Below, piece by piece: positions 1,849 to 61,502 of a DNA stretch of 64,000 nucleotides. The stretch is from NCBI GenBank assembly GCA_020851375.1, contig JADZCV010000044.1, positions 192,285-256,284 of the forward strand, given 5' to 3'. The translations under genes and the position numbers were made by a program. Within the stretch, counting starts at the first letter, position 1, and each line of letters starts with the position of its first letter. Below the pieces are notes generated by a model. The model saw nothing but the letters and a program-made list of their open reading frames with translations. It had not been told where the DNA came from and did not search any database. The DNA comes from Nitrospirota bacterium (GTDB taxonomy: Bacteria > Nitrospirota > 9FT-COMBO-42-15 > HDB-SIOI813).

Positions 1849-1864
1849 ATTTACTCCTTCAATG

Positions 1865-4214: not shown

Positions 4215-4234
4215 AAGGGTACCAAAGCCACCTG

Positions 4235-5911: not shown

Positions 5912-5919
5912 AATCCTTT

Positions 5920-8354: not shown

Positions 8355-8360
8355 TTTTTT

Positions 8361-9305: not shown

Positions 9306-9320
9306 CCCAAGGCGGAATGC

Positions 9321-10391: not shown

Positions 10392-11052
10392 TTTGGAACC
10401 TATCGGGTACCCAATGTTTATTAACAAATTTATCAACATCGCTTGTAAGCAACATAGTCTCAAAGCGAATCTTTTCAATAGGCCAATTCCACCATTGGAT
10501 TTGTAATAGTTTTTTGATCATATCTTCGTCAAAACGGTATCTGATAATCTGTGCTGGATTACCGAGAACTATGGCGTATGGAGGTATATCTCCCCGAACA
10601 ACAGAAAACGCCCCTATCACAGCACCATCTCCAATTCTTGCTCCCACTATGCTTGCACCGTATGCAATCCATACATCGTTTCCAATTACAATATCGCCCT
10701 GTCTTTTTGGAATATCAGCACCAACCTCATTAAGAAGGAAATGTCTCATCGGATATGTTGTACCCGTAAGCTTATGATTTCCATTTACAAGAAATGTAAC
10801 ATTTTGAGCGATCGAGCAAAACTTGCCGATTCTTATCTGATCATCTGTATCATAGCCTCTAAACTCACAGGTCGGCTGGTAATAAGACCATGGACCGACA
10901 ACAACGTCGCACTTAATTCCCCTAAATTTCCGCTCAAATCCGATCTCGGCAAGTTTATTCTGAAAAATATCTTGCTTATCTGCCTTATGGTGCATAGACT
11001 CACCCAGAAGGCGGAGTTTAAGAATGGCGGCAGCACGATCTATCAGCCACAT
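10384..11052 (-). CDS. hexapeptide-repeat acetyltransferase, XAT (Vat/CAT-like) family, likely sugar O/N-acetyltransferase
   Basis: Left-handed beta-helix repeats IGNDVWIAYGASIVGARIGDGAVIGAFSVVRGDIPPYAIVLGNPAQIIRYRF; about 220 aa. Confidence 0.8.
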   Translation of the reverse strand: MWLIDRAAAILKLRLLGESMHHKADKQDIFQNKLAEIGFERKFRGIKCDVVVGPWSYYQPTCEFRGYDTDDQIRIGKFCSIAQNVTFLVNGNHKLTGTTYPMRHFLLNEVGADIPKRQGDIVIGNDVWIAYGASIVGARIGDGAVIGAFSVVRGDIPPYAIVLGNPAQIIRYRFDEDMIKKLLQIQWWNWPIEKIRFETMLLTSDVDKFVNKHWVPDRFQNE

Positions 11053-11129
11053 CTCAGATTACCTCATTTACCACAACATGGATATTCTCAATCTCGAAAT
11101 CAAAATGATTTAAATTAACCATATTATAT

Positions 11130-12407: not shown

Positions 12408-13225
12408 ATCACATCCGCGAAATAGCGCTCAACCCGCCGGAAATAGAAGACGCCACCCAGGAATATCACGATCCCCGTTGCAGCAGATATCCCGAGTGAT
12501 ATCCACGGCACCGGCAGATGGCCGAGTACAGCGGGACGGAATGCCTCGATAACCCCGCTCATCGGATTTAGTGCAAGGATCCAGGCGTAACGTTCATCAA
12601 AGAGGCTCGTCGGGTAGATGACGGGGGTCACGAACATCCATATCTGTATCCCAAATGGTATGACATACTGAATATCCCTGTACCTCACATTGAGCGCCGA
12701 GAACCACATCCCGAATCCAACGGCGTTCATCATAGTGAGCACAACGAGTAAAGGCACGAGGAGTATAGTGACGCTCACCGCTATGCCGTAGTATATCATC
12801 ATCAATCCCAGGACAACGGCGGCAATGGCTAAATCCAGGATGGCGGCGATTGATGTGCTCGCGGGCATCAGTATCCTGGGAAAATAGATCTTGCTGACCA
12901 TGTCCGCACCGCTCACCACACTGTTTGTAGATTGAGAAAGCACGGAGGCGAAGTATTGCCAGGGTAGAAGCCCTATGTAAACAAAAATGGGATACGGGAC
13001 ACCATCAGAAGGGATTTTTGCAAGGCGGCCGAAGAGCAATGAGAATACCACCATGGTCATAACAGGCTGCAGGATCGCCCACATCACGCCGAGGGCCGTC
13101 TGCTTGTATTTGACCTTGACGTCCCGCCAGGCAAGAAAATAAAGGAGTTCACGGAACTTCCATATCTCCCGGAAGTTGACCGGCACCCAGCCTTTTTGGG
13201 GCTCTATGACGATCATCTCTTTCAT
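12404..13225 (-). CDS. wzm: ABC-2 type polysaccharide exporter permease (Wzm/TagG-like)
   Basis: 273 aa, 6 predicted TM segments, immediately upstream of and 4-nt overlapped with the Wzt gene. Confidence 0.8.
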   Translation of the reverse strand: MKEMIVIEPQKGWVPVNFREIWKFRELLYFLAWRDVKVKYKQTALGVMWAILQPVMTMVVFSLLFGRLAKIPSDGVPYPIFVYIGLLPWQYFASVLSQSTNSVVSGADMVSKIYFPRILMPASTSIAAILDLAIAAVVLGLMMIYYGIAVSVTILLVPLLVVLTMMNAVGFGMWFSALNVRYRDIQYVIPFGIQIWMFVTPVIYPTSLFDERYAWILALNPMSGVIEAFRPAVLGHLPVPWISLGISAATGIVIFLGGVFYFRRVERYFADVI

Positions 13226-45913: not shown

Positions 45914-47649
45914 TTCTTCTTTTCCCCGGTACTATCCAGGAGGGCCTGAAGACGCACCCTCGTTTCCGCATGTGAGGGGTCCAGGGCAGCGGCATTCTGA
46001 TAGGCACGAATCGCCTCCTCGAACCTCCCCTCCTTCGTGTAGAGCACTCCCAGGTTAAAGAATGGCAGGTAGTTGTTGCTGTGACGCTGTATTGCCTTCA
46101 TAAAGATCTCTTCTGCAAGCCCCGGCCTGTTCTGTTCATAGTATATGATCCCGAGGTCATTATATATCTGCAGATTACCCGGATTGCCTTTAAGCAGATC
46201 TTCCAGTTCAGTGGCCGCAAGGTCCAGTTTCCCCTGGACTATATATATCTGGGCAAGGTTGTGTCTCGCTGTCAGACTCTCCTGTCCATCATGGATCGAG
46301 ATACTTGTGCGCAATGACTCAATGGCCTGATCATACATCTTCATGTCTTTGTATGCAATCCCAAGTCCTGCATGTGCGATGGATGAACCCGGGGCCTTTT
46401 TTACTGTATCTGTCCAGAGGGTCAGGTCATCCCTCCACTCCGTGTTCCGTATAATGGTCACTGCAGAATATGCTGCGCAAAGGGCAATCAAGAGAAACAG
46501 GGCAGCGGCCCGGGACACAGAACTACTCAATTTATCCAGGACAACACCTGCAAACACTGCCATAGTTATTATTGCCAGATATCCCCTGTGCTCCTGCAGT
46601 ATCAGGTTAAGGGGGATAACTGTCGTAGGCAGAAGCACGATAAAAAACCAGAACATGAAGAATGAAACAACCCGCCAGGACGCTGTGGATGACCGGAAAA
46701 GAAGCAGGGCAACTGCAGTATAGACAGAAAGCACAACTGCAGAAAAGATGACTGGAATCGTGACAGTCCTGTAGACCTCCATGTCGTGGACCAGGGTTAA
46801 TGGTATGGGGACAATAAACATCTGCAGATATTTAACAAGTGCAGGAAGTTCCGTAAAAAACTGGGTTACCGGATCCCTCTTAAATGAGTGAGGCGCCCCG
46901 CTGAAGGCAACCCCCCAGACATAGAGATAGGGTATGACCACAATAAGGATAAATGGAAGGTAGGGGGTATATTTGCGCCAGTCCTTTAAGTGGCGCTGTG
47001 CAGGGGTGCGTCGTTCCCGGAGGAGGTATACGTCATATAGCCATAATACGAGGGGAAGGGTGACGGCAGACTCCTTGCTCAGCATCCCTGCTGCAAAGGA
47101 AAGCAGGGATGCAATATAAAAAAAAAGGTTTAGATCCCTCCGGAACCTGACCCAGCAATAAAAGGCAGACAGATAGAAGAAACCGCTCATGACGCTGGAG
47201 CGCGTTGATATGTAATTTACGATCTCTGAGTTGAAGGGGTGGACGAGAAAGATGATGCCTGCTGACAGGGCCGCAAAAAAGGCCGGGGTGGTGAATATGG
47301 CCCGGACTATCAGAAAGAGCAGAAAGGCTGACCCGGCATGAAAGGCGAGGTTGACTATGTGGTATCCTGCAGGGTTTAGACCATTTACCCGGAAATTCAG
47401 TGCATAGGTCAACATCAGGAGGGGCCTGTACGGAGAGCCCCTTTTCATCCCCTCATTGCTGAATGTGGAGGGATCGGAAAAAAGGGAAGATAGCCCGGAC
47501 AGGTCCCGTATACCGGGATTCATGGTGATATGGTGGGCATCATCGTAGTGAAATGGATTGTGTATCGAGTTGTAGTAGAGCAGTCCTGCGATCAGTACAA
47601 AGGAAAGGAAGGTAGTGCAGACTATAACCCGGTTACTGTAACGACTCAT
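45910..47649 (-). CDS. TMTC-like protein (membrane domain + TPR), paralog 2
   Basis: First-loop HNPFHYDDAHHI motif, LVHPFNSEIVNYISTRSSVMSGFFYL block shared with the paralog at 62353, C-terminal TPRs (LGIAYKDMKMYDQAIESL...). Confidence 0.7.
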   Translation of the reverse strand: MSRYSNRVIVCTTFLSFVLIAGLLYYNSIHNPFHYDDAHHITMNPGIRDLSGLSSLFSDPSTFSNEGMKRGSPYRPLLMLTYALNFRVNGLNPAGYHIVNLAFHAGSAFLLFLIVRAIFTTPAFFAALSAGIIFLVHPFNSEIVNYISTRSSVMSGFFYLSAFYCWVRFRRDLNLFFYIASLLSFAAGMLSKESAVTLPLVLWLYDVYLLRERRTPAQRHLKDWRKYTPYLPFILIVVIPYLYVWGVAFSGAPHSFKRDPVTQFFTELPALVKYLQMFIVPIPLTLVHDMEVYRTVTIPVIFSAVVLSVYTAVALLLFRSSTASWRVVSFFMFWFFIVLLPTTVIPLNLILQEHRGYLAIITMAVFAGVVLDKLSSSVSRAAALFLLIALCAAYSAVTIIRNTEWRDDLTLWTDTVKKAPGSSIAHAGLGIAYKDMKMYDQAIESLRTSISIHDGQESLTARHNLAQIYIVQGKLDLAATELEDLLKGNPGNLQIYNDLGIIYYEQNRPGLAEEIFMKAIQRHSNNYLPFFNLGVLYTKEGRFEEAIRAYQNAAALDPSHAETRVRLQALLDSTGEKKK

Positions 47650-48443
47650 GGAGACTTAGCGCACCGGAAGCCCTGATCATAAGTAGTATGCCAGTCAAGC
47701 CCTCTCGTAGCAAGAGAGGACTCAATTGCATAACGGGAAGACGTTCGGGCATAACGATACAGGGGGGTCACGTACGACCCTCCACGCACTGACCTGTAAT
47801 TTCCACTGTAATATCCGTCCGGCAATGTATTTCCAGGATAGGCCTCATACCACCCGCCAGTCCACTCCCGCACATTACCGGTCATGTCATAGACTCCATA
47901 GGGGCTGACATCTTCAGGATAACTTCCAACAGGCGCACTCCATTTTCTACCTGACTCGAGGGTATTTGCCTTCCCTGCAGCATACTCATCCCCCCAGGAC
48001 CAGAGCCTGCCGTCCGTTCCACGGGCTGCCTTCTCCCACTCCGCCTCTAATGGGAGCCGCTTGCCAACCCATGTGCAATAGGCATCTGCATCCATCCAAT
48101 CTACATCAACGACCGGATGGTCATGCTCACCCTTTTCAAAGGTTCCCATCTCAGCCCAGGGAGCCGGGCGGTATACATTGTTTGTTTTAATTAGAAATTC
48201 ATAAAACTGGGCATTGGTGACCTCGTAACGGTCTATGTAAAAATCCTTTACATAAACCCTGTGCCTGGGGATTTCATCCACTCCTATCGTCATACCAAGC
48301 CGTCCTTCAGTTCCGCTGCTCCCCATCTCAAACCATCCAGCCGGTACAAAGACCATATTCTCCGGAGGTGAATTGCCGCGCATATTATACTGATGACTGC
48401 AGCCAAACAGTAGGGTTGCTAAAAGAAAGAGCACAGGAAGCAT
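47646..48443 (-). CDS. FGE-sulfatase (SUMF1/formylglycine-generating enzyme) domain lipoprotein, paralog A
   Basis: Lipobox MLPVLFLLATLLFGC at chosen start 48443 (the track start is 48614). Domain motifs RVYVKDFYIDRYEVTN, YCTWVGKRLPLEAEWEKAARGTDGRLWSWGDE, GVYDMTGNVREWT, RGGSY. Confidence 0.75.
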   Translation of the reverse strand: MLPVLFLLATLLFGCSHQYNMRGNSPPENMVFVPAGWFEMGSSGTEGRLGMTIGVDEIPRHRVYVKDFYIDRYEVTNAQFYEFLIKTNNVYRPAPWAEMGTFEKGEHDHPVVDVDWMDADAYCTWVGKRLPLEAEWEKAARGTDGRLWSWGDEYAAGKANTLESGRKWSAPVGSYPEDVSPYGVYDMTGNVREWTGGWYEAYPGNTLPDGYYSGNYRSVRGGSYVTPLYRYARTSSRYAIESSLATRGLDWHTTYDQGFRCAKSP

Positions 48444-48471
48444 CTTTTGTCTCCTTTCACCGGGAATATCA

Positions 48472-49302
48472 TCATAGACCATCCACAGCACACCGGAATC
48501 CGTGGGCCGGGTGGTCCCACTTTGGGGCAACTGCATGCCTGTAGGCACTCCTCGCAAAGGGCACGGACGGGTTCTCCCATGACCCGCCGCGTAAAACCTT
48601 GTATTTCTCACCAAATGCCTCCCTTTGAAGGGTACTGCCTGGATACGGCTTATACCATGATGATGTCCACTCCATCACACTCCCGGCCATATCGTAAATC
48701 CCGTAAGGGCTCACACCCTCAGGATAACTTCCGGCCGGTGTTGTCCAACCTGCTCGGGCCTCTCTCGTATTTGCCATTATCTTTCCTTCCGGACCAAAAA
48801 AATCATTTCCCCAGGGCCATTGACGGCCATCGGTTCCCCTTGCGGCCTTTTCCCACTCCTCTTCTGTCGGGAGCCTCTTACCAGCCCAACGGCAATAAGA
48901 ATCCGCATCATACCAGGATACGCCCTTCATCGGGTGAGTATCTTCCGGTTCAGGATAAACATTAATATATGACTCAATTGTCCATATCCTCGGGGCCTTT
49001 CTACCCGTGACATCCAAAAACCTCCTGTATTTCTCAACCGTAACCTCGAAACGGTCCATATAAAACCCATTCACATAGACACTGTGCTGAGGGATTTCAT
49101 CTACCCCCACTGATTGGCCAGGGATGCCATCATCTTCCCTGCTGCCCATAAGAAACCACCCTTCAGGTATATACACCATATCCGTGGTGTCTGGAACCGG
49201 TTTCACGCTGCTCACGGTATGAATGCACCCCGCAAGTAAGAGGACCGTCGTAAGACACACTGCAACCCGGCAGTTATTAATGAGCCCTGTCATCTTCCGC
49301 AC
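48472..49302 (-). CDS. FGE-sulfatase domain lipoprotein, paralog B
   Basis: Lipobox VCLTTVLLLAGC. Motifs YMDRFEVTVEKYRRF, YCRWAGKRLPTEEEWEKAARGTDGRQWPWGND, GIYDMAGSVMEWT, RGGSW. Confidence 0.75.
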   Translation of the reverse strand: MRKMTGLINNCRVAVCLTTVLLLAGCIHTVSSVKPVPDTTDMVYIPEGWFLMGSREDDGIPGQSVGVDEIPQHSVYVNGFYMDRFEVTVEKYRRFLDVTGRKAPRIWTIESYINVYPEPEDTHPMKGVSWYDADSYCRWAGKRLPTEEEWEKAARGTDGRQWPWGNDFFGPEGKIMANTREARAGWTTPAGSYPEGVSPYGIYDMAGSVMEWTSSWYKPYPGSTLQREAFGEKYKVLRGGSWENPSVPFARSAYRHAVAPKWDHPAHGFRCAVDGL

Positions 49303-50134
49303 AACGAAAACCTATTCCCCTGTGCCTGTAATCAGGCTTGAAGGTATTGGCCCGGTATGCTGCCCTGCTGTATGGCATGGCCGGCATAACTAACGACCCG
49401 CCCCGTGTGACTTTGTATGTCTCTCCAAAGGAATCCCTCTTAAGGGTGCTCCCAGGGTAGGGGAGGTACCAGGAGCTGGTCCATTCGCTCACATTACCGC
49501 ACATATCATAAACTCCATAAGGGCTTACGTCATCGCTGACACTTCCCGGAGGAAGGATCTGTCCCGGGCCTGCATACCGGGTGTTGCAGGTATGTCCTCT
49601 AAGATCACTCCCCCAGGGCCATTGGCGGCCGTCTGTGCCCCTTGCAGCCTTTTCCCACTCCTCTTCTGCAGGGAGCCTCTTTCCAGCCCAACGGCAGTAG
49701 GCATCCGCATCGTACCAGGTTATATTCGAGACAGGGATGTCTTCAGTTCCTTCTGGCGGGGTGTTGCCTTTCCACGAAGATGCCCCGGGATGTTTATCAT
49801 CAGGCGCTGAATGGCCGGTCGCATCAATGAAGGCCTTGTACTGACGGTTAGTCACCTCGTACCTGTCAATATAAAATGCCTTCAGATATACTGACCGCTG
49901 GGGAATCTCATCCACCCCCACGGACTGGCCCACCAACCCATCCTTCTCAGTGCTACCCATGATGAACTCTCCTGCAGGTACATGCGCCATCTGTTCCTCA
50001 GTCACCGTCTGACCGGCAGATGATGCAGTCACGACCATTCCTGCCAGGAAAACCTGCACTAATAAAAACAATGCGCCTGCCTGCTTCACCTGATTTTCAT
50101 CTGCCTTTGTGAGCCCTGGCTCATGACGGTTCAC
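49277..50134 (-). CDS. FGE-sulfatase domain protein, paralog C (signal-anchor N-terminus)
   Basis: YIDRYEVTNRQYKAF, YCRWAGKRLPAEEEWEKAARGTDGRQWPWGSD, GVYDMCGNVSEWT, RGGS. GTG start at 50134; the first roughly 10 codons lie inside the repeat's module C. Confidence 0.75.
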   Translation of the reverse strand: MNRHEPGLTKADENQVKQAGALFLLVQVFLAGMVVTASSAGQTVTEEQMAHVPAGEFIMGSTEKDGLVGQSVGVDEIPQRSVYLKAFYIDRYEVTNRQYKAFIDATGHSAPDDKHPGASSWKGNTPPEGTEDIPVSNITWYDADAYCRWAGKRLPAEEEWEKAARGTDGRQWPWGSDLRGHTCNTRYAGPGQILPPGSVSDDVSPYGVYDMCGNVSEWTSSWYLPYPGSTLKRDSFGETYKVTRGGSLVMPAMPYSRAAYRANTFKPDYRHRGIGFRCAEDDRAH

Positions 50135-50332: not shown

Positions 50333-53023
50333 TCATTGCGTTACCTCTCCTGCAGTACCGGCGCACCAGTCAGGCCTGTTTGGCACATTGGCCGATGGCT
50401 TGTAGTGACACGTTGACATCGTGATGTTATGACACCTTAAATCACACCGGAAGCGGTTAAGATCGTCATCGCCCTCCAGGTACCATCTCGGTCTCAAGTC
50501 CGTGCCTCCTGTGACCAGCTCAGGGGCAAAATTGATCAGGTGGGTCGAAACAACCCCGTCAATCATACCATCCTCTTCATCAGGCGGCAGACACCCCGGA
50601 GGATCGGTCATTGGGTTTCCTCCCGGATTTCCCGGGGAACCAGCTCCGCAGTTCGGGTAGATCCTGCCTCTTCCGTCTCCATAAACCGTATTTTTCGCCT
50701 CTATGTTACTGTGAACATTATTGTGGCACTCATGACAATAAGAGCCCCCCAGCAATAAGTGATACATGTGAAGATTGATATCCCACGTGGTTTGAATACT
50801 TTGGGGGTTCCCGAAGAAGTTCGTCCACGAGGAATCACCTCCGTTCGCCCCTGCTGCAGTGGGGTCAAATGCCCTCCGGTCGTGACATTGAAAGCATAAG
50901 AGGAAGTTATCATAATAGGAGCTGCTCTGCCCGTCATTGATAAAGTCTCTGTTCGGATTCCGGATATCAGTGTTGTAGTTATTTCTCAGGATGCGCGGAT
51001 ATAATGAACCATGAGGTCCCTGGGGTTTCGTTGGATCGAAGTTTGTAAGTTCACTAATGTTAGACGCTGAATCCGTTATCCTGCGGTATGATGTCCCATC
51101 AGGAAGACCAGTTACAGGTCCTTTGATATCTCCAATTCCTGTAACATTGTTGTTGTGGCAATCGGTACACTGGATGGTAATGTTTCTGAGCGCCCCTGCC
51201 GGGTCGGCATCGCAACTCCCGTTCGTCCCTCCGGGATTGAAACGCGACGCAATGTTAAAGGCAACAGAAAGCTGATTACAAAGCTGGCCTGTACCATTCC
51301 TGCCAGGCGCTGCTACAGGGTGATAGGAAGGATTTCTTGCCTGCCTGGTATGATTTTCATCTATATCCTGACTGTTAGGATCAAACTCCTTTCGCTTATT
51401 GCTATACCCCCTGAAACTCAAATTTGCATCCGTTGGCATTACATCCCTGGGGTCTGACCGGAAAATGGTCTCTTCAGGATAGCGGTTGCCTATAAACAGG
51501 TTTGTATAGCTGTTCCCGTGACACCGGAGACAGACCTCATAGACATAAGGCTCGCGGCTGTTTCCCGGTATCTTTGCACCAACCACATTTCCGTTAATAT
51601 CTATCCCCTTCATCCCTTTAAGCCTGTTGGTCTTTGTCGCCTGATGGGGGTTATGGCAATCCACACATTCGACATGTACGGTATCCATGAGGGTTGTGCC
51701 AGGCGGATATTCATTAAAGAGAGGAGGTGCAAAACTCCACAGTTCCACACCTTCCTGCGGTCTGGCAACAAATACAGGCTCATGTCCCTGCCCCATCGTC
51801 AGGTTCATAGCACTCCCCCTGCCGCCCCTTCCGATATTTTTGTCTTTATAGAATTCGCTCCTTATGTCCGGAGGCGGATTCGCGGGATTTCCCATCTCAG
51901 ATGCCGGCCTGTGACAAAGATAACATGTATTCTCTATGGCAAGATTATTGTTGAAATCAACCCCCTCCCGAAGGAGCCGCTTGGCACCCTGTGCCGTATG
52001 GGGATCATGGCAGGCACGGCATGCGTACTTGCCCACAGTGTGAGTGCCGTCAAAGTTATATGGATTCGCTGCTGAAGGACTTGCCGTTGGTACAAACACA
52101 TCTGTATCATGTGTACTCCCGTTCCAGCCCGGCTTATCGTGGCAGTAAAGACAGATAATCTTCCCTCTTGCAGGGTCCTCAGGCTCATTGAAGTAGTTGG
52201 CCCGCAGGAACTTTGGAAAAGTTACAGCATGCGGGTTATGGCATGAGGTGCACTGTACTGAATCGTAGAGATTTGGCACACTGCCCGGATATCTCCGCAT
52301 GGGTGAAATTGGGGTAGTATCACTCACCTTTTGAGGCGGAACAAGCGGCGGACCCGGGTCCACGAGTTCTTCATCCCTTGCAGCAAGCAGACTATCATAT
52401 ACAAACGATACCGGATGGTCGTTTTGGAGGTTCGTACCTATGACCCTCGTGTCCGCTGATGTTACCCCTGAGCCGGACGGCATTGTCCCCGCGCCTCCTG
52501 CAGGGGTCTGCCCGGTTGGATAGATCATATCAAACGGCGATAAGGATGTCCCTGACCCAGGCGCATTGACAACCGTGCCCAGTGCTATTGTCCCGTCATG
52601 ACATGAAAGGCACAGTCTTGAGTATCCAGTAGGTGCATTCGGTTTTGGTTTGGTCTCATAACCCTCAAAGCTTGTGCTCCATACCTGGTCGTAGAGGATA
52701 TAACGTGCTGTAGAAAGCCTTCTGTTCCATATGGGGGCGCTCAATCCTGCAGCCTCTTCATCACCAACAGCGCCATGCGGCGTGTGACAGAATACACATA
52801 TCTCTGTTGTCTGTGTTGTAAACACAGCCCGGTCCGCCGGTCCTATTGATGAGAGGTTGTGCTTTGTGTTCCGAATGTCTTCAAGCACGGATGGGACTAA
52901 CGGTATCGGTGCAGGTGGCAGTGCCGGCGGCTGGGAATGTCCCCTTTCCTCCTGCCAGAAAAAAATGGCAAGAAAGATTAATACACCTATGAATGTAACC
53001 GGCAGCAGAATTTTTTTAAACAT
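50333..53023 (-). CDS. multiheme c-type cytochrome (11 CxxCH plus one CxxxCH), N-terminal signal/anchor
   Basis: CVFCH, CLSCH, CTSCH, CLYCH, CRACH, CYLCH, CVDCH, CLRCH, CTDCH, CFQCH, CHECH and CDLRCH; N-terminal MFKKILLPVTFIGVLIFLAIFF hydrophobic segment; 896 aa. Confidence 0.85.
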   Translation of the reverse strand: MFKKILLPVTFIGVLIFLAIFFWQEERGHSQPPALPPAPIPLVPSVLEDIRNTKHNLSSIGPADRAVFTTQTTEICVFCHTPHGAVGDEEAAGLSAPIWNRRLSTARYILYDQVWSTSFEGYETKPKPNAPTGYSRLCLSCHDGTIALGTVVNAPGSGTSLSPFDMIYPTGQTPAGGAGTMPSGSGVTSADTRVIGTNLQNDHPVSFVYDSLLAARDEELVDPGPPLVPPQKVSDTTPISPMRRYPGSVPNLYDSVQCTSCHNPHAVTFPKFLRANYFNEPEDPARGKIICLYCHDKPGWNGSTHDTDVFVPTASPSAANPYNFDGTHTVGKYACRACHDPHTAQGAKRLLREGVDFNNNLAIENTCYLCHRPASEMGNPANPPPDIRSEFYKDKNIGRGGRGSAMNLTMGQGHEPVFVARPQEGVELWSFAPPLFNEYPPGTTLMDTVHVECVDCHNPHQATKTNRLKGMKGIDINGNVVGAKIPGNSREPYVYEVCLRCHGNSYTNLFIGNRYPEETIFRSDPRDVMPTDANLSFRGYSNKRKEFDPNSQDIDENHTRQARNPSYHPVAAPGRNGTGQLCNQLSVAFNIASRFNPGGTNGSCDADPAGALRNITIQCTDCHNNNVTGIGDIKGPVTGLPDGTSYRRITDSASNISELTNFDPTKPQGPHGSLYPRILRNNYNTDIRNPNRDFINDGQSSSYYDNFLLCFQCHDRRAFDPTAAGANGGDSSWTNFFGNPQSIQTTWDINLHMYHLLLGGSYCHECHNNVHSNIEAKNTVYGDGRGRIYPNCGAGSPGNPGGNPMTDPPGCLPPDEEDGMIDGVVSTHLINFAPELVTGGTDLRPRWYLEGDDDLNRFRCDLRCHNITMSTCHYKPSANVPNRPDWCAGTAGEVTQ

Positions 53024-53102: not shown

Positions 53103-53846
53103 TTACCACAGTCCGGATCGTTTCAGCCTGTACAGTCTGAATACAACCAGAGGTGAAAACAGAGACAACAGCCCGGCAACAGCGCCTCCGGAAGTGGTTG
53201 GGCGGCTGCCCTGAGTCATGATAGTCCCGCATCCCAGCCCGCTTCCACTGCCAGAGCCTGAGTTAACTGACGATTCCTTTGATAACACTAACTGAAACAA
53301 CCTTGGATCTTTACCGGCCGATATATAGGAATAGCCGGAGTCCCGCGTAATATCTGCCAGCGCCATCTCCTGGCCGGCCCCGGCTCTATGAACATCCTTC
53401 AGGAGAAGGACCTCACCAGGTTTTAACTGACCCGGCAGGACATTCCAGCTCAGATCAACCTTTTTACCTGCAGGCACAGAATCTACGGTAATCTCCCATG
53501 AACTATCCCCGTTAGTTGATGTCCCTCTTATATCCTTCCATAGATATTTTGCCGCATCTGCAGCCCCATCCCTGCCCCGGATATAAGCCCTCAACAGCAC
53601 AGGATTCTCAGAATCATTGGCAGGATCAGACAGGGAAATCAGTGCAGGTGTATCCCAGAGGTTGTCAAAATCATCTGTAGCGCCCTGCTCTATGCCTACT
53701 ATCAGCTTGTTGTACAGCCTCGTATTGTCCCCGCCGGTTGTGGAAATCTCAATCGGCACCTTCCACGCGAAGGCAGATGTCAGGAATATACATTGCAGGA
53801 AAAAAATAAAAAAAGATATTGTGGATCTGCTAATCACTTTGCTCAT
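53103..53846 (-). CDS. secreted protein with C-terminal sorting-signal-like tail (Gly/Ser-rich linker, hydrophobic helix, basic end)
   Basis: Signal peptide MSKVISRSTISFFIFFLQCIFLTSAFA (start 53846; the track start is 53891). C-terminus GSGSGSGLGCGT...SGGAVAGLLSLFSPLVVFRLYRLKRSGLW. Confidence 0.6.
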   Translation of the reverse strand: MSKVISRSTISFFIFFLQCIFLTSAFAWKVPIEISTTGGDNTRLYNKLIVGIEQGATDDFDNLWDTPALISLSDPANDSENPVLLRAYIRGRDGAADAAKYLWKDIRGTSTNGDSSWEITVDSVPAGKKVDLSWNVLPGQLKPGEVLLLKDVHRAGAGQEMALADITRDSGYSYISAGKDPRLFQLVLSKESSVNSGSGSGSGLGCGTIMTQGSRPTTSGGAVAGLLSLFSPLVVFRLYRLKRSGLW

Positions 53847-53847
53847 C

Positions 53848-55908
53848 TTATTCCGGCCTCCTGAATACAATCTCCAGACCATCTCCGCCATTTACATATA
53901 ACCAGTACCCTGTCCAGGGCTCAAACGCTGCCGGCGGGTCGTCATTAAAAGAGGTGAAATCATAGTTACCGTCTTTTAGATAGTAAAGGGTATTTCCTGC
54001 CAGACCGTTCTTTATCGCCTCTGTAAATGGCTTCTCCTCTCCGGTTGAGTGATCTCTCACAACGACGTCTTTCATCAGAATCCTGTGTTCATATGGTGTT
54101 CCGACCATATTCCATCCTGTCTGTAACTCCATGCCATATTCCGGACTTTCAATCCTTACCCCATCAATAAACAGGTTGATGCCATCAACAGGGGAATAGA
54201 GGAAATATCCAAGTCCCGGAGATACCGAATCCTCTGAATAATACTGCGGAGGTGTGAGCCCGGGGTAGGCGGAATACCACCGGTATAATGCAACATCAGG
54301 ACCCACACTCGGTGCAAACAGGGATACCGCGTCATTCGGTACAGGCAGCAGAGGGAGGGATATGAGATTGTATCCCTTTCTAAGCGTAAGCGGTGATGTC
54401 AGTTTCACAAAACCTGATGTGCCTGCTGCATAGGACTGAGACGACAACGGAAACATTACGATGTTTGACACCGGAGACACGTGCCCTGACGAATCCACGC
54501 TCTTTATAGCGATGCAGTAGGTCCTGCCAGCCTCAAGCCCTGTCATCGTGTAGGTCTGCAACACCCCTTTCTGGGGTCTCTGTTCCCCTGTCACTTCAAT
54601 AGCCCTGTCCCACTCCCCATCAGCCAATACTGAGGATGCGGAACATTCCAGGTAGCGCAGGTCATACAGGGCTGCAGTGCCGGACATGCCGTCGTCTGAC
54701 GGCGCTGACCACATCAACAGTACTGAGGTATCTGTTACATAGAACCCCTGCAGGTCGCGGATCGCATCCGGTGGAAGGCTGTCGTCCGGCTCTGTCACTG
54801 AGATCCTGATCCTTCTTGAGGCGGTTGCCCCGTTCACATCCCTGATACCAGCAACAAATTCATATATACCCGGAACAATCAAATCCCCTGACAATACTCC
54901 CGTACTGCTGTCTAATGTTACCCCCTCAGGAAGGTTGCCTATAATGCTCCATACGATGGGCTTACTCCCTCCTGTGACTGAAATCCGGCCGGTGTATGCC
55001 TCTCCGGCAACTCCGTCAGGAAGCATGGCAGCGTCAATCTCAGGTATTGAATTGATATTGAGCGTATAGTCCCGCGAGCGGCTGTATCCATTTACAGTAT
55101 CATCCCCGATAATTACAAATCTGTATAAACCGGTTGCTGAGGGTGCGCCGGTAATTTCTCCAGTCTCCGGATTTAAAGTCATACCAGGCGGAAGCATCCC
55201 CTCTGAAAGTCTCCACACAGCGGTTCCACCAACTGCCGATAACTTCTCATTATAGAAGTTGTCCATTGTTCCATCAGGTAGATAGGGAGGGGTGATGAAA
55301 AGTCCTTTCGCCATCATCCTTATCTCAAAATCCCGGATCCCATACTTTTTACCTGATTCAACCGGGATGTTGTTGGTATAGAGATAACGGGATGAGCTCC
55401 TCATGTCTATAATGTTTGCCGGATTAGAAAGGTCAACAAGTAATATATCCATTTGAGCAGGCTTGTTTTCGAAATTCCAGTTCAGTGTGACAGTCCCTCC
55501 GTTCACTGTGGAGATGATACGGAATGTCCAGACTTTACTTTCGCCAAATGGCCTGATATCACGCCAGAGGGAACACTCCTGGTCCGTATAGCCTTCACCC
55601 GGATTGCTGCACGTCCAGTTAACCAGCTTGCCATACTTATCCCTGTATTCACTGAGGGTGCCATGGGTAAACATGGCCTGAACAGGGTCATCTGCTCCGG
55701 CCATGGAGAGGGTATCCCAGGAGCTGTCAAAGCCATCTGTTGCCCCTTCCATAGTCCCTGCAATAAGGTGATTCCAGACCGTACCATCGCTACCCCTCGA
55801 ATCAGGAACTGATACCTTTACATGCACAGACCAGTCCGTCTCTGCCGCATAGACAGCGGATACGAAGCTAACCAGGATCATGATTGTAATCAGTAATCGT
55901 TTTAGCAA
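53848..55908 (-). CDS. secreted cell-surface protein with putative Ig-like (cadherin/He_PIG-type) and fibronectin type III domains and a conserved C-terminal domain
   Basis: Signal peptide MLKRLLITIMILVSFVSAVYA; LPPGMTLNPETGEITGAPSATGLYRF (putative Ig domain motif); FN3 LLMWSAPSDDGMSGTAALYDLRY; C-terminal domain shared with the 1779-aa protein. Confidence 0.65.
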   Translation of the reverse strand: MLKRLLITIMILVSFVSAVYAAETDWSVHVKVSVPDSRGSDGTVWNHLIAGTMEGATDGFDSSWDTLSMAGADDPVQAMFTHGTLSEYRDKYGKLVNWTCSNPGEGYTDQECSLWRDIRPFGESKVWTFRIISTVNGGTVTLNWNFENKPAQMDILLVDLSNPANIIDMRSSSRYLYTNNIPVESGKKYGIRDFEIRMMAKGLFITPPYLPDGTMDNFYNEKLSAVGGTAVWRLSEGMLPPGMTLNPETGEITGAPSATGLYRFVIIGDDTVNGYSRSRDYTLNINSIPEIDAAMLPDGVAGEAYTGRISVTGGSKPIVWSIIGNLPEGVTLDSSTGVLSGDLIVPGIYEFVAGIRDVNGATASRRIRISVTEPDDSLPPDAIRDLQGFYVTDTSVLLMWSAPSDDGMSGTAALYDLRYLECSASSVLADGEWDRAIEVTGEQRPQKGVLQTYTMTGLEAGRTYCIAIKSVDSSGHVSPVSNIVMFPLSSQSYAAGTSGFVKLTSPLTLRKGYNLISLPLLPVPNDAVSLFAPSVGPDVALYRWYSAYPGLTPPQYYSEDSVSPGLGYFLYSPVDGINLFIDGVRIESPEYGMELQTGWNMVGTPYEHRILMKDVVVRDHSTGEEKPFTEAIKNGLAGNTLYYLKDGNYDFTSFNDDPPAAFEPWTGYWLYVNGGDGLEIVFRRPE

Positions 55909-56162
55909 GGCTGCACCCCTGATTATTCACCACAAAGACACAAAGTACACAAAGATAACAAATTCATAATATAATTCTTTTAATACCCTTTTTTAAAATT
56001 TCCACGTTGAAATTTATCAATAAACCTAATCGTAAATTCATTAGTTTCAAATATGACAGTATTCTCATAATCTATCGTTATCTCCTGAAGATTTTCCTGA
56101 TTTATAATTTTAGTTCTACTATCCATCTTTGTGTCCTTTGTGCCTCTGTGGTTAATCTTCTG
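55909..56162 (-). promoter_or_regulatory. AT-rich intergenic region bounded by inverted CACAAAG-triplet repeats; probable promoter/operator of the 686-aa protein gene
   Basis: 254 bp non-coding, strongly AT-rich centre. 55931-55954 cacaaagacacaaagtacacaaag on the plus strand; its imperfect reverse complement at 56127-56151 ctttgtgtcctttgtgcctctgtgg. Confidence 0.4.
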
Positions 56163-59100
56163 CTAATACGGTACCAGTAATTCAAATGCGCCGCCAACAG
56201 CCTGCAATCTGATCCAGTAGGCCTTCCATGGCTGCATCACAGGGCTGCAGCGGGTGCCTTGATGCTCTCCTGCCACGTCACTGGCACAGGTCTCAAACGT
56301 ATAATTGATGCCATTGTAGGTATAAATAGACCCATCAAGCCAGTTCAGGGCTGCAACTGCATCCTGGAATGACGCTACCTGCACCTGTCCCTGAACCGTC
56401 CGCCTGACATACAGGCCCTGCTCCCGCTCTTCTATACTGCCATTGCCATTGGCATCTACAGGGCTGAAGTTTGTCTCCTTGTCAAACGGGTTGCCGATCA
56501 TGTTCCATCCACCCTTAATTGATAATGCGTAGCACTCAAAGGCGCCCCCATTATCGTCAGTACAGGTCTCAGTGGAAGACTGAGTTGACGCAGGGGGGAC
56601 ATCAAGCGTGAACTTTCCAGCCGGTGCCCAAAGTAAATATCCGGTACCTTCGCTGACAGAGGTCAGCCTTGAACATGTATATTGTGCCGGATTTGAACTG
56701 AAAGGGCCCGGCTCTCCATCATAACAGCCGCTGTCAAAGTCTGATCCCCTTGAATCCCACCGGTATACCTGCAGCTTATAGTCCGGGGTCACTACGTCAT
56801 CACCAAATACATCCTTAGGTGTATCAGGATTGGGATGATACGGCACAGATATCAGGTTGTATGCATAGGGGGCAAGGGGTGTCATACCCTTTGCCGGCCC
56901 GGTTGAGATAAGGGACCTATGGTCCTCAGCTACTGAGGAGTTCGCATCCGCCCCCCTCTCATCCAGTGCCCTGATAGCAAAATAGAACCTTGTATTCAGT
57001 GTCCTGTCGTCAATCACCCCGCCGCCTGTGTCTATCTTATTCTCAACAGGGACAATGTAGCATTCCTTCATTCCTGGTGTGCGGGGGGCCAAAAACCCTT
57101 CTGCCGGTGCAGCAAGTATTGCATTGGAGAATGGAATCTGGCCGGGACCAGGTGCTGAACTATCAACGACGATCTCTCTCGTGGAATAGCGCATGTCATA
57201 TCCTGTAACAGCCCCTGAGGACATATCTGACCCGTCGTCCGGCGGCGCAGTCCAGCAGAGTGTCATGGTGTCTTTTGACGCATCTGTTACCGAAAGGTCT
57301 GAAATAGCGCCAGGCCTTGTTGTATCATCCGATACGAGCGTGTGTGCCGGACATCCGGAACAGGTCGAGATAGAAGAGACATTGCCTGCATCATCCGTTG
57401 TCTTAAGTGCAATGTAATAATTGGTATTGGCAAATAGCTGCGAAATCGTGCATGACTCAGACTCCCCTGCAGATTTGGGCTTTCCAGGTATACTTTCTCC
57501 GGCTTTACAACTGACTGCCCTGGCCGCCTGTATGAAGTTGCCATCTGTAATAGGGGATGTTGAATACCGCAGGTCATAGTATGCTGCGGTATCACTCATA
57601 CCGTCATCTCCTGGTGACGTCCATGAGACCTTGAAAGAGGTTGCAGTAATATCGCTAATGTCAAGGACTACAGAGGCAGGGGGTGTCGTATCACTACTGT
57701 TGATAACCGCCCTGACTGAATCAACCTTTCCGCTGTCCCCGGTTGAACGAATATCAAACAGGATCGTCTCAGAACCTGAGGTAAATGACGAAGGCGGGGT
57801 AATCCGGAAAGTAAAGAATGGGAACTCTCCCCCGTTATAGTTCGCCGGATTCCCTGCAGTTGCAGTCGGTACATTCACAGGGGAGCTGTACTCAACAACA
57901 CTGCCGTCATTTAGTCTCTCCTGCATCACAACACCCCAACCGCCGGATGGCGTGTTCCAGGAAATAAGATAGCTGTCTGCAATATTCCCTTCATTCTGTA
58001 CGCCAACCGTTATCTCCTTAGATGAGCCGTTTGAGATGTCAAGTGCGGTGCAACCACCGTTGCCTAAACCCAGCGCCCCGTATATGTTGTCCCCGGCCCC
58101 CGCTGTACCACAGCCTGCACCCAAAGTTCCGTAGCCTGAAATAGTACCTCCCGCATTATAACCAAAACCATAGATGACCCCGTCAACTTTGTAGGTCGCC
58201 TTTAAATCGAGGCGGGCCTTGAGCGAGTCCATATATTGTGCAGCGCCGTTAGAATAGATATTGACGTCAATATCTGCTGCCCGGGGCTGGCCTGCCGGAA
58301 TAATTTTTAATGTAAATATCTGTTCAAAATCACTGTGGGGCTGAGACCTTACCGGCGCAGTGGTAAACCCGACTGATGCTGTAATGCCATGATCGCCTGA
58401 ATCGTCACTGATAACTGCTGTCCAGCCAACAGGGAGAGGGTTTCGGAGAGAGAGGGTATAGGTATCCGGAACATTCCCCTCATTTTGCAGGGTAATAGTA
58501 TATGAGATGCTGTCCCCTGGCCCCGCCTCCTTAATCTGGGACGTGCCACCTCCTCCGGTGCGGGCCGGGTCATACTGGTTGTTTCCATCTCCGTCAATCA
58601 GGCCATCCGCCTGATAAATACTGTTGATTTGTGTGGCTGCCCGGATAGAATCTACCTTCGCATAATCATTTTCCGAGCGGAGATTAACGATAATGTCCTG
58701 CGTGACAGCGCCCGGGGCATATGCAGAAGGGGTAACCTTCAGTGTATAGGCCTTTTCCGAACCCGCGTTCAGTGATACGGAGGCAGGGGATGTCAGGTCA
58801 GCGTTGCTGTCATTCAATAAGACCGCCCAGTCCCCGGATATATCTGAAGGGGTGTTCCAGGAAATAATAAAGGTATCGTCCACACTCTGAGATGTGCCGT
58901 CATTTTGAACCTGTATATCATACGTAAGCGGCTGCTGGAGCCTGAATCCGGGATCTGCGTTCTTTGAAGCCTCCCCTCCTGCACCTGATCCAAAGGACCC
59001 GTAAGCATTATCACCATTTGCCTCAATGATCAGGTCAGGCTGGTACACACCACTCGCTGTAAAATAGCCGATCCGGCTTTCACGTAAAAACGGGGTCACT

Positions 59101-61502
59101 GTACCCAGCTCTGAAAACAGGATGACCCTGTATTGCAGCCACTGGTCGTTATTATTGCCGCTATAGCCGCTCCTGTGGGCCGGGTTTATCGGCTCCCTTC
59201 CATCAGGGTCAGTATAGGTATCTGTAAAGGTAGATCCGGATGAATATGTATAAGAAGTGGCTGAGTCAAGTGTAATAACAGATGTTGCCAGATTGACATC
59301 TGTGATCTTTTTTGTTTCATTCTGATTGGCGTTTGCACTATTGGTAATAGTGACCCTGCCGCCGGCACTGAAGCCGGCCGCACTTCCCACGGAAATCTGA
59401 GAAACACCTTTTGCGGCTGAAAATGTCGTTGAATGGGGCCCATACCACTGACTCCATGAGGAACCGTTAGGAGATGTCCTTAACTGGAGCGAAACATCAG
59501 TACCTGCGGGGATATCCTCTGACCATTTCCAGCGATTGATGACATCAGCTGTATCTGTTGTATCATAGGGTGAACTGATCAGCATCTGCAGGGAGGGTAT
59601 CTCCTCAAAATTTATCGTTACATCGTTTAGTTTCGGGTCATATGCCGGGTCAATCTCAGGCCTCTCGAAAAAGGCCTTGAAACGTATGTAGCGCCGTTCA
59701 TTATGACCCTGATTAATGGTGGCCCCGGGGCTTACATAGTCATAACCAGACTCCCCTGGAAGCTCCTCATAATTCCACGTCTGGTTATCGTTATTCGTGG
59801 CAATCTGAAACTTAAGTGATGAACCTGCAGGCACAGTAGCGCCCCATGTAATGGATTTAAAAAAGGCCCCGCCAGTACCAATATCAAATGAAGGGGACTC
59901 ATAGGCGCCGAGAAGAAAAGAAGCCAATCCATAATTAACCGTCACATCCTGCAGTACAGGACTGTCGGCAAGATCGGTCGTCGCCCGGTGGAAAAAGGCC
60001 TTGTACCGGACATAGCGGTCTCTGTCATGGACTGAAGAGATGGCAGCAGGAGAACTGTCATAATATGTGCCTGATGTCCCGTCCGGCCCCTTAAAATTCC
60101 ATGTCTGGTTATCGTTATTTGTGGCAATCTGAAATTTCAGAGTAGACCCTGAAGGTACGGTCGCGTTCCAGACAAGGGTATGCAGGAGGGCCCCCCCGGG
60201 ACCTGTATCAAATGAAGGGGACTCGTAACTGCCGTCAGTAAATCCGGCGGCAATCCTTAAAGAGGCATTCACGTCAGGATAGGCGGTTTTCACATCAAAG
60301 GCATCTACTCCTACCGCTACATTTAATGCACTGTTGTTTTTCTTCCCTGTGACCACAATCCTCAGGGTATGTGCGGTGTTGCTCAGACCGCTGACTGTAA
60401 ACAGGGATTGCCTGGACAGGAGTGTGCTGCTGTAAAGGTCAACACTCCCCTGAAGCTGCCCGTCGAGGAAGACATTTGCTATTCCAAAATCACGGTATTT
60501 TGGACCATACCAGGTCGCCTGCGTCCCTGTAAAGGCAAGGGTAGCAGAAGCGCCTGTTTCAATGGAAAATATAATGGTCCCGCCATAGGCACCTGAAGAA
60601 AACCACTGCCCGGTCGTGACCACAGCAGGATTTGTCTCCTCATATGTTGTCGTGGCATAGTATCCGGTCCCAACCAGTTGCAGGTTAGTCAGTGTCCCCC
60701 TGTCAAAATCAAGCAGATCTGCCTTCTGCGTAACAGAAGATGTCCCATCAACGAAGGTTATGTATGCACCGGCGTCCGGGTTCGGAACACCTACAATAAA
60801 GGCATACACTCCCACGGCAGGATCGGATGAACTGCTGTTTTTCCTGCCTGTGACCACAATCCTGAGGGTATGCTGTGTGTTGCTCAGACCACTGGCTGTA
60901 AAGAGGGTCTGCTGAGACTGGAGTGTGCTGCTGTACAAGTCAACGCTCCCCTGAAAGTTTCCATCCAGATAAACATCTGCAATTCCAAATGAATTGTATT
61001 TCGGCCCAATCCATGTCGCCTGCGTTCCTGTAAAGGTAAGGGTAACCGTAGCGCCTGTCTCTACAGAAAAAATATACCTTCCACCGGAAGGATTATATAA
61101 CGTTGAAGAATACCACTGCCCGGTCTTGCTGACTACCGACGTATTATCTTCCTGATATGTTGTGTAATTATACCCACCTGTCCCGACCAGTTTGAGATTG
61201 GTCAGGGTACCCCTGTCGAAATCATTCAGGTCTGCTGTCTGAATTATGGAGGCAGGTTGAGGGAAAATAGAAAGCTCTCCGGCTATTGAGGTACTTACAT
61301 ATGGGTCCTTACTGTAAAATTTGGTCCATCCGGTTTGTCCACCAGGATGGACTGCAGTGGCAGAGGTATCAGCTCCTCCTGTCCAGTCGCTCTGGACCCA
61401 GTTATAATTGGAGGCATAAAGGGACCCAGGTGTACATAACAGAATAAGGGTCAAAATTTGCACTATAAATGCCTTTGCCTTATCTCTCATGTCTGTATCC
61501 AT
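56163..61502 (-). CDS. giant secreted surface protein (1779 aa) with internal tandem duplicated domains, FN3 domains and a conserved C-terminal domain
   Basis: Signal peptide MDTDMRDKAKAFIVQILTLILLCTPGSLYA. Two roughly 173-aa tandem repeats (ADLNDFDRGTLTNLKLVG... / ADLLDFDRGTLTNLQLVG...) and a second repeat pair (GSTLKFQIATNNDNQTWNF / GSSLKFQIATNNDNQTWNY). FN3 motifs SWTSPGDDGMSDTAAYYDLRYS and CWTAPPDDGSDMSSGAVTGYDMRYS. Ser/Thr-rich. Confidence 0.7.
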   Translation of the reverse strand: MDTDMRDKAKAFIVQILTLILLCTPGSLYASNYNWVQSDWTGGADTSATAVHPGGQTGWTKFYSKDPYVSTSIAGELSIFPQPASIIQTADLNDFDRGTLTNLKLVGTGGYNYTTYQEDNTSVVSKTGQWYSSTLYNPSGGRYIFSVETGATVTLTFTGTQATWIGPKYNSFGIADVYLDGNFQGSVDLYSSTLQSQQTLFTASGLSNTQHTLRIVVTGRKNSSSSDPAVGVYAFIVGVPNPDAGAYITFVDGTSSVTQKADLLDFDRGTLTNLQLVGTGYYATTTYEETNPAVVTTGQWFSSGAYGGTIIFSIETGASATLAFTGTQATWYGPKYRDFGIANVFLDGQLQGSVDLYSSTLLSRQSLFTVSGLSNTAHTLRIVVTGKKNNSALNVAVGVDAFDVKTAYPDVNASLRIAAGFTDGSYESPSFDTGPGGALLHTLVWNATVPSGSTLKFQIATNNDNQTWNFKGPDGTSGTYYDSSPAAISSVHDRDRYVRYKAFFHRATTDLADSPVLQDVTVNYGLASFLLGAYESPSFDIGTGGAFFKSITWGATVPAGSSLKFQIATNNDNQTWNYEELPGESGYDYVSPGATINQGHNERRYIRFKAFFERPEIDPAYDPKLNDVTINFEEIPSLQMLISSPYDTTDTADVINRWKWSEDIPAGTDVSLQLRTSPNGSSWSQWYGPHSTTFSAAKGVSQISVGSAAGFSAGGRVTITNSANANQNETKKITDVNLATSVITLDSATSYTYSSGSTFTDTYTDPDGREPINPAHRSGYSGNNNDQWLQYRVILFSELGTVTPFLRESRIGYFTASGVYQPDLIIEANGDNAYGSFGSGAGGEASKNADPGFRLQQPLTYDIQVQNDGTSQSVDDTFIISWNTPSDISGDWAVLLNDSNADLTSPASVSLNAGSEKAYTLKVTPSAYAPGAVTQDIIVNLRSENDYAKVDSIRAATQINSIYQADGLIDGDGNNQYDPARTGGGGTSQIKEAGPGDSISYTITLQNEGNVPDTYTLSLRNPLPVGWTAVISDDSGDHGITASVGFTTAPVRSQPHSDFEQIFTLKIIPAGQPRAADIDVNIYSNGAAQYMDSLKARLDLKATYKVDGVIYGFGYNAGGTISGYGTLGAGCGTAGAGDNIYGALGLGNGGCTALDISNGSSKEITVGVQNEGNIADSYLISWNTPSGGWGVVMQERLNDGSVVEYSSPVNVPTATAGNPANYNGGEFPFFTFRITPPSSFTSGSETILFDIRSTGDSGKVDSVRAVINSSDTTPPASVVLDISDITATSFKVSWTSPGDDGMSDTAAYYDLRYSTSPITDGNFIQAARAVSCKAGESIPGKPKSAGESESCTISQLFANTNYYIALKTTDDAGNVSSISTCSGCPAHTLVSDDTTRPGAISDLSVTDASKDTMTLCWTAPPDDGSDMSSGAVTGYDMRYSTREIVVDSSAPGPGQIPFSNAILAAPAEGFLAPRTPGMKECYIVPVENKIDTGGGVIDDRTLNTRFYFAIRALDERGADANSSVAEDHRSLISTGPAKGMTPLAPYAYNLISVPYHPNPDTPKDVFGDDVVTPDYKLQVYRWDSRGSDFDSGCYDGEPGPFSSNPAQYTCSRLTSVSEGTGYLLWAPAGKFTLDVPPASTQSSTETCTDDNGGAFECYALSIKGGWNMIGNPFDKETNFSPVDANGNGSIEEREQGLYVRRTVQGQVQVASFQDAVAALNWLDGSIYTYNGINYTFETCASDVAGEHQGTRCSPVMQPWKAYWIRLQAVGGAFELLVPY

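Follow-up and report, generated by a model that had tools for sequence, protein, structure and literature searches.

GWN and domN, as they are called here (GWN after its most conserved motif), are two families of protein domains that were recognised in a 64-kb stretch of DNA (hereafter, the window) on contig JADZCV010000044.1, which belongs to a metagenome-assembled genome (MAG) of a Nitrospirota bacterium. GWN is a soluble all-β domain of about 185 residues, made by internal duplication of a unit of about 90 residues. It is part of the mature protein, in which it either closes the chain or immediately precedes the sorting signal that each lineage uses. In the window, GWN closes two large proteins, A (686 residues) and B (1779 residues), and domN opens A and makes up most of a third protein, C, which is encoded next to A. 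As both domains are fused in one polypeptide elsewhere and split here, it can be argued that they act together, most simply by direct docking. The model proposed, which is given slightly less than an even chance, is that GWN docks onto domN and would thereby build an anchored chain C-A-B. The family-level facts on both domains are solid, and the docking mechanism is plausible.

The terminal domain shared by A and B

Both proteins have Sec-type signal peptides and are encoded by confirmed open reading frames (ORFs) on the minus strand, as are all the features of the window described below. Gene A (53848..55908), which starts with TTG, encodes the signal peptide, domN, two He_PIG domains, an FN3 domain (residues 382–478; 54475..54765) and the terminal GWN (residues 502–686; 53851..54405). 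Gene B (56163..61502) encodes the signal peptide, two repeats of 160 residues, two repeats of 106 residues, three DUF11-like units, two FN3 domains directly 5' of GWN (56913..57695, with approximate boundaries) and GWN itself (residues ~1535–1779; 56166..56900), which has long insertions with respect to the family core.

A first-pass annotation of this DNA had claimed that A and B share a C-terminal domain of about 200 residues, and their comparison bears this out for the last ~185–245 residues. When the C-terminal pieces alone are aligned (A 495–686 with B 1526–1779), the match has E=2.9e-12, with 25% identity over 231 columns, and the Smith-Waterman score of 142 compares with 34±5.6 for 500 shuffles (z=19). 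Whole-protein BLASTP aligns A 375–681 with B 1392–1776 (E=4e-14), a segment that comprises FN3 as well as the C-terminal region; the shared region does include a terminal module, as had been supposed, but the preceding FN3 domain is shared too. Every conserved block quoted in that annotation is found in A and in B, and YNLIS[LV]P, G.GY[FL]L, GWNM[VI]G.P and PW..YW constitute a signature of the whole family, beyond these two proteins. The proposed tail GG..E[LI].V is exact in B, while A needs a shift of one residue to fit it, and it is not conserved family-wide.

An exhaustive search with a hidden Markov model (HMM) against 1.84 billion representative proteins, the kind of search that the annotation had called for, retrieved 3,992 GWN representatives at E<=1e-3, 626 at E<=1e-10 and 28 at E<=1e-30, and very few relatives were recovered by word-indexed protein searches. 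In the six-frame translation of the window, the profile finds GWN only in A and B. Thirty-five diverse members, with a mean column identity of 27%, were used for conservation and for model tests, and in them P18, G64, G97, W98, N99, P104, W164 and G166 are invariant or nearly so. The domain had been suspected to be of an uncharacterised type, and so it appears: Pfam and NCBIfam give zero matches to the C-terminal regions of A and B, even at E<=10, and zero matches to the 35 diverse members, the PDB sequences give none to the GWN profile, and limited literature searches, by motif strings and by topics, found a description of neither GWN nor domN. The cargo that precedes the module is indeed different from one relative to another (FN3, PKD, He_PIG, CARDB, Big_2, Glucodextran_B and others). 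As no model exists for GWN or domN, annotation pipelines label their carriers only by generic FN3 or Ig cargo, and the public names follow it: 'fibronectin type III domain-containing', 'putative Ig domain-containing' or 'hypothetical'. B itself, which is identical to MCC7202841.1 from a Nitrospirota MAG, is labelled 'fibronectin type III domain-containing protein'. Two domain families that mark thousands of large surface proteins in many phyla are therefore left with no name, model or structure.

The AlphaFold2 model of the GWN of A has a pLDDT of 94.3 and a pTM of 0.89, and replaces an earlier model that was built from an alignment of four sequences (pLDDT 61). It consists of 14 strands of 3–9 residues (mean ~5.6) and two short helices, and its two halves of ~90 residues are homologous (HHalign probability 96.4%, E=1e-9). 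Foldseek against the PDB gives only weak cupin and jelly-roll matches (best E=0.04, TM-score 0.17). Against BFVD there is one credible match, A0A8D9C8P8, a protein of 587 residues from an uncultured marine phage (E=5.5e-4, TM-score 0.62), which is probably a homolog and places the fold in phage or phage-binned sequences too. This protein bears no annotation beyond the name 'putative hemin binding protein', and is uninformative on the function of GWN.

It could be argued that GWN is a glycan-binding anchor, similar to a lectin or a carbohydrate-binding module (CBM), that would attach its carriers, by their C-terminal end and non-covalently, to surface polysaccharide or lipopolysaccharide in the fashion of an S-layer, domN being a mere structural neighbour. 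Trp, Tyr and Asn abound at the conserved positions (GWN, GYW, PW.GYW), which would fit such a function, and the folds weakly matched by Foldseek, jelly-roll and cupin-like, would also suit it. The genes of A, B and C, moreover, adjoin a surface-glycan cluster of ~45 kb (with NeuB, an ABC-2 exporter and many glycosyltransferases), and TPR/PMT_2 glycosyltransferase-like genes are syntenic in a related locus, L002. However, no CBM or lectin family matches GWN, either in sequence or in structure, and it may be that the conserved aromatic residues do no more than build the hydrophobic core. The short-linker coupling to domN and the adjacent domN genes, which are described below, would be left unexplained, and this interpretation is considered unlikely.

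Terminal position and sorting signals

The position and architecture of GWN were counted in its 151 best relatives, with a first profile and then with an improved one. The C-terminal position that had been noticed in A and B is the rule: the domain ends at most 15 residues from the C-terminus in 138 of the 151 proteins with the first profile, and at most 20 residues from it in 142 with the improved one. A Pro is found within the last four residues in 98 of these 142 terminal members, 52 of which end in [KR]P, so that the typical end of the family is a hydrophobic strand and then Pro; A and B end in a β-strand. A second, internal copy is present in 48 of the 151 proteins, and the number of copies per protein is one or two, never more. 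Single-lobe or shortened versions of the domain exist as well. A generic Ig-like or FN3 repeat, an explanation that the first-pass annotation had itself put forward as a way to refute its proposal, has been rejected: no Ig or FN3 model matches GWN, the domain forms no arrays, its copies are one or two and mostly terminal, and 40 of the 48 two-copy proteins have a detectable domN between the copies.

In species-representative genomes, GWN is found in Desantisbacteria, Armatimonadota, Bacteroidota, Ignavibacteria, Chlorobi, Desulfobacterota and a Methanobacteriota archaeon. In many of these genomes 180–330 residues lie beyond GWN, and these tails end in sorting domains of the type IX secretion system (T9SS) type or in FlgD_ig domains. 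Tails of the Por_Secre_tail type follow GWN in the same polypeptide in loci L004, L007, L015, L018, L019 and L021, which belong to Bacteroidota, Ignavibacteria, Chlorobi and Desantisbacteria; only those of L018 and L021 exceed the 27-bit cut-off of Pfam, and the remaining ones, at 19.6–23.5 bits, have the typical QNYPNPFNP motif. In Desulfatibacillum, a GWN protein of 3628 residues (L016) ends in GGSGGC, a transmembrane helix and RKHRV. The archaeal locus L022, from the Methanobacteriota MAG, has terminal GWN copies, and this carrier is an organism without an outer membrane. Five to six tandem paralogs of 469–939 residues are encoded at 1064-13062 of this locus, each ending in a shortened GWN (...GEAYWI.V..D..W.V.W, followed by the stop codon), which represents an archaeal expansion of the family; domN is not detected nearby.

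These observations bear on the suggestion that GWN is a secretion signal. In its most specific form, GWN would be the recognition signal of an unidentified outer-membrane secretion or sorting pathway, and might be removed after export. In support of this idea, more than 90% of close relatives have the domain at their very C-terminus, many members end in the conserved [KR]P, the module is common to differing cargo, and A and B have Sec signals and no identified route across the outer membrane. Against it, GWN is predicted to be a stably folded, two-lobed domain of 185–245 residues, far larger than known signals, and it has internal copies, it precedes T9SS-type sorting tails in the same polypeptide and it occurs in an archaeon that has no outer membrane; besides, neither the window nor the neighbouring loci inspected contain a conserved translocon-like gene. 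Such a pathway-specific signal is thus regarded as very improbable. The internal copies, the separate T9SS-type tails, the archaeal form and the lack of signal-like features place GWN within the mature protein. The first-pass annotation had spoken of a secretion or anchoring module, and it is the second half of this description, anchoring or docking, that is plausible, while a secretion signal is unlikely.

The known kinds of C-terminal signal were considered one at a time, and rejected. The T9SS C-terminal domain (CTD), which had been named as a candidate, resembles GWN in being C-terminal, β-rich and carried by unrelated cargo. However, CTDs (Por_Secre_tail, PF18962/TIGR04183) are single Ig-like sandwiches of ~70–100 residues, strictly terminal and removed by a sortase-like activity, whereas the two-lobed GWN (185–245 residues) has twice that size, is matched by none of the models PF18962, PF13585 and TIGR04183, and sits just upstream of such tails in proteins of the FCB group and Desantisbacteria. 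Its carriers also include an archaeon, and Nitrospirota loci in which no T9SS component was seen. Within the window there is no T9SS machinery (PorK/L/M/N, Sov, PorU/V), and the FGE-sulfatase proteins encoded near C score 105.8 bits with the GldK model, far under its 350-bit cut-off. The search for a co-occurring sortase or secretion system, which had also been proposed, found no sortase, exosortase, rhombosortase, CPBP protease, type I secretion system, type II secretion system (T2SS) or T9SS genes in the window.

A tripartite CTERM signal on A or B (PEP-CTERM, GlyGly-CTERM, MYXO-CTERM or LPXTG) was discarded on the lack of a transmembrane helix: there is no hydrophobic helix in the last 60 residues of either protein, where the maximum 19-residue hydropathy is 0.24 in A and 0.79 in B. 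As for the outer-membrane anchoring domain that had also been envisaged, membrane barrels have at least 12 amphipathic strands of at least 9–10 residues and a terminal aromatic β-signal. The strands predicted in GWN are too short for a barrel or an autotransporter, its ends are mostly Pro or [KR]P, and no Pfam autotransporter or outer-membrane protein model matches it. Nor does the proposed S-layer anchoring find support, since no SLH or other curated anchoring-domain model of Pfam or NCBIfam matches GWN.

domN and the proposed docking

domN is defined by the homology between the N-terminal ~185 residues of A and most of C (Smith-Waterman score 142, compared with 33±5). In A it spans residues ~22–207 (55288..55845) and starts three residues past the predicted cleavage site (between VYA and AETDW); in C (53277..53777) it starts at the predicted mature N-terminus (between SAFA and WKVPIEIS). 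As a family, domN has a length of ~160 residues, and it has no Pfam or NCBIfam match and no sequence relative in the PDB. The possibility that it is a diverged lobe of GWN has been rejected, as the two profiles are unrelated (HHalign probability 0.3%). In the cross-phylum alignment W5, G30, W106, W123, L136 and D138 are invariant, and the first strand (DW.V.V.VSVP) directly follows the signal peptide in A, in C and in proteins of L002, L003, L023 and L026. In L025, a gene of 101 codons (11434-11739), downstream of that of a terminal-GWN protein, encodes nothing more than a signal peptide, a first domN-like strand (DWDAEIQISVPD), a transmembrane helix and a basic tail, and so reduced a form of 'domN' hints at its N-terminal strand as the possible key to the interaction.

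The coupling of both domains is apparent within single polypeptides. A first domN profile, built from Nitrospirota proteins alone, matches the spacer between the GWN copies of two-copy proteins, and also the segment that comes after GWN in proteins of Desantisbacteria and Armatimonadota; once iterated, the profile finds domN flanking GWN in Cytophagia and Ignavibacteria-type proteins too. Among the 151 relatives, 100 have GWN alone, 40 are GWN-domN-GWN, seven GWN-GWN, two domN...GWN, and two have other mixed architectures, the fused forms outside the window being GWN-domN-GWN or GWN-domN-T9SS tail. The median linkers are of 15 residues from GWN to domN and of six residues from domN to GWN. In this Nitrospirota lineage and in several others, with domN at the mature N-terminus and GWN at the C-terminus, the break between genes coincides with the linker through which the fused homologs run on without interruption. 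The situation is thus like that of split/fused 'Rosetta stone' pairs, in which one protein ends and another begins, as A, B and C do, at a junction that is continuous in homologs.

The coupling is also apparent between adjacent genes. The Nitrospirota cassette consists of B (...GWN), A (domN...GWN), C (domN plus anchor), a multihaem cytochrome of ~900 residues, an FGE-sulfatase-family protein and a TPR membrane protein. This cassette is conserved in L001, L002 and L003, two of them in one MAG, and its B-A-C part in L029; as L001 is cut at the contig end, the complete cassettes are those of the window, L002, L003 and L029, and each has two GWN and two domN. In 12 of the 15 terminal-GWN loci with readable flanks a domN gene is adjacent (the window, L001–L003, L029, L023, L024, L026, L027, L028, L030 and, in its mini form, L025). 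Directly after a giant terminal-GWN protein comes a small one with domN in L023 (E=1e-23), L024 (4e-24), L026 (5e-13), L027 (2e-23) and L028 (1e-17), and in L030 the domN protein directly precedes the terminal-GWN protein (7e-19). The reverse look-up, starting from domN in one locus related to L024 (L031), found a terminal-GWN protein directly upstream.

It has also been considered that GWN could be a passive structural or spacer module, its terminal position and its link to domN being due to the common ancestry of a mobile 'end-piece' cassette. The internal copies in 48 of the 151 proteins, the single-lobe or shortened versions, the generic cargo (Ig-like, FN3 and PKD domains) and the elements that GWN precedes (T9SS-type tails, FlgD_ig and the Cys-transmembrane anchor of L016) are all in agreement with such a role. 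However, Ig or FN3 spacers form arrays, whereas GWN does not exceed two copies, and its motifs are strongly kept across phyla at an overall identity of ~25%. Furthermore, the split always takes place at the GWN/domN linker, and the adjacency is kept in about six cassette types, which would not be expected for neutral spacers. A purely passive role is therefore held to be improbable.

The docking model proposes that A, B and C would be exported by Sec, that the GWN of B would then dock non-covalently onto the domN of A, and the GWN of A onto the domN of C, and that C would be held in the envelope by a Cys-containing tripartite C-terminal anchor. The outcome would be an anchored chain C-A-B of ~2,700 residues. 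The sequences show homology, domain boundaries and internal duplication, the patterns in which both domains are fused or split, the adjacency of their genes, the signal peptides and the junction of A with C. From these we infer the likely contact of GWN with domN, how the chain would be ordered, how C would be processed and where it would finally be located, and a possible surface exposure. In four to five cassettes compared, GWN identity is 52% within a type and 36% between types, and domN identity is 44.5% and 33%, respectively. These two conserved classes are compatible with specific pairs B:A and A:C.

Gene C, on which the base of the chain would depend, has an ORF of 262 codons (53103..53891), whose annotated start (53891) overlaps A; its probable real start is the ATG at 53846, one nucleotide past the TAA of A, which gives a protein of 247 residues. 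The junction (53844..53862) comprises a perfect AGGAGG Shine-Dalgarno sequence, encoded by the C-terminal Arg-Arg codons of A, the TAA of A, one nucleotide and the ATG of C. Both the one-nucleotide gap and the location of AGGAGG inside A suggest that A and C are translationally coupled. Protein C is arranged as a signal peptide, domN, a Gly/Ser linker and the tripartite anchor, a layout of the C-terminus that is absent from A and B. This tail (53103..53249) is formed by SGSGLGCGT, a spacer of ~20 residues, a hydrophobic helix (AVAGLLSLFSPLVVF) and RLYRLKRSGLW. C and its orthologs in L001, L002 and L003 have G[LF]GCGT[IV]K, a spacer of 12–20 residues, a hydrophobic helix (...LFSPL...) and an Arg/Lys cluster.

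In Myxococcus, a CPBP-family myxosortase cleaves the Cys-containing CTERM signals, and the proteins are displayed at the surface with a lipid anchor, in a T2SS-dependent manner (10.1101/2023.06.07.544157; PMC11980579). As in these signals, C and the L016 protein have a signature motif with an invariant Cys, a transmembrane helix and an Arg/Lys cluster at the very C-terminus; the tail of C differs from them in its long spacer between GCGT and the helix, and in the conserved Pro of the helix (LFSPL). It resembles MYXO-, JDVT- and Synerg-CTERM, but matches none of them.

Several points weigh against the docking model. Fusion and adjacency indicate functional coupling, which is not necessarily binding. 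No domN is detectable near L008, near the second L012 gene or near the archaeal L022 genes, that is, in two Armatimonadota cases and one archaeal case, and the shared ancestry of the loci means that 12 of 15 overstates the number of independent observations, which come down to about six cassette types. The two-class pattern of identities is equally predicted by plain orthology. As regards the anchor, no curated NCBIfam CTERM model matches the tail of C, the window contains no CPBP or sortase-like gene, and the small domN proteins outside the Nitrospirota cassette mostly end in FN3 or in nothing, not in a membrane anchor. Docking could be general, and anchoring specific to certain lineages.

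Among known systems, the closest functional analogy would be that of cohesin and dockerin. Under the proposed model, a terminal module of large extracellular proteins would likewise plug into a module on a scaffold or anchor protein encoded nearby, and type-specific pairs would allow a hierarchical assembly (B to A to C), with the cell anchor at the base. In contrast, dockerin is a Ca-binding helical duplication of ~70 residues, while GWN is an all-β, two-lobed domain of 185 residues, and the Pfam models of cohesin (PF00963) and dockerin (PF00404) match none of A, B and C. The organisms considered here are diderm, and the putative pair exists also as a covalent fusion. P0154, a distant relative from metagenomes, does have a precomputed cohesin domain, which lies in another part of the protein and has no bearing on GWN. 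The donor-strand complementation of pili offers another comparison, as the first domN strand lies at the mature N-terminus and L025 keeps this strand alone together with a membrane anchor. However, GWN is predicted to be a complete fold by itself (pLDDT 94), whereas pilins miss a strand; GWN and domN show no evidence of strand exchange, and no usher or chaperone gene is present.

A broader version of the docking model, which is possible but rather doubtful, holds that GWN and domN would be a new, widespread heterotypic docking pair, fused or split, with which diderm bacteria, and perhaps some archaea, build very large surface fibres out of several proteins that are exported one by one. In Nitrospirota and related lineages, a new Cys-containing CTERM anchor would tether the base. 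As the system is genomically linked to the multihaem cytochromes of ~900 residues, it could be a scaffold of extracellular electron transfer. If docking is true, it provides a rule to predict the assembly partners and the tethering of giant proteins in uncultivated bacteria, and extends a principle like that of cohesin and dockerin beyond cellulosomes. The minimal result consists of two new domain families, of which GWN is not to be mistaken for a T9SS or sortase signal.

Neighbouring genes and the rest of the window

The gene next to B-A-C in the cassette encodes the cytochrome. In the window (50333..53023) it has 896 residues, 11 CXXCH motifs and one CX3CH, and an N-terminal signal or anchor. 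It is of the paired-CXXCH type and is 61–64% identical in L001–L003. Large or paired-CXXCH cytochromes also flank the GWN/domN gene pairs of L024, L028 and L031. This linkage suggests a tie to extracellular electron transfer.

Three tandem FGE-sulfatase-family genes follow (47646..50134), as conserved downstream members of the cassette, and this family recurs after the GWN/domN pair in L001–L003 and in L028 (16004-17597). That genes of large multihaem cytochromes, FGE-sulfatase-family proteins and TPR proteins recur beside those of GWN and domN points to a cell-surface apparatus of subsurface Nitrospirota that has gone unrecognised. Other neighbours are a rhomboid-family protease gene ~4 kb from the GWN/domN pair of L023 (17633-18370) and the gene of a B12-binding radical-SAM enzyme directly after the domN gene of L024 (13479-14954). 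Either of them could be a processing or maturation factor, or its proximity could be coincidental.

Nearly all the remainder of the window (1-41300, minus strand) is occupied by one surface-glycan biosynthesis cluster, which encodes NeuB (nonulosonic acid synthase), an ABC-2 type exporter pair, GDP-mannose dehydratase, DegT aminotransferases, many GT2/GT4 glycosyltransferases, SAM methyltransferases and several PMT_2/TPR membrane proteins. The latter could glycosylate exported proteins.

Within B, residues 84–243 and 255–410 are 68% identical, and residues 419–524 and 527–632 are 57% identical, so that both repeat pairs are recent duplications; the three DUF11-like units that follow (residues 821–1270), of ~140 residues each, are more diverged.

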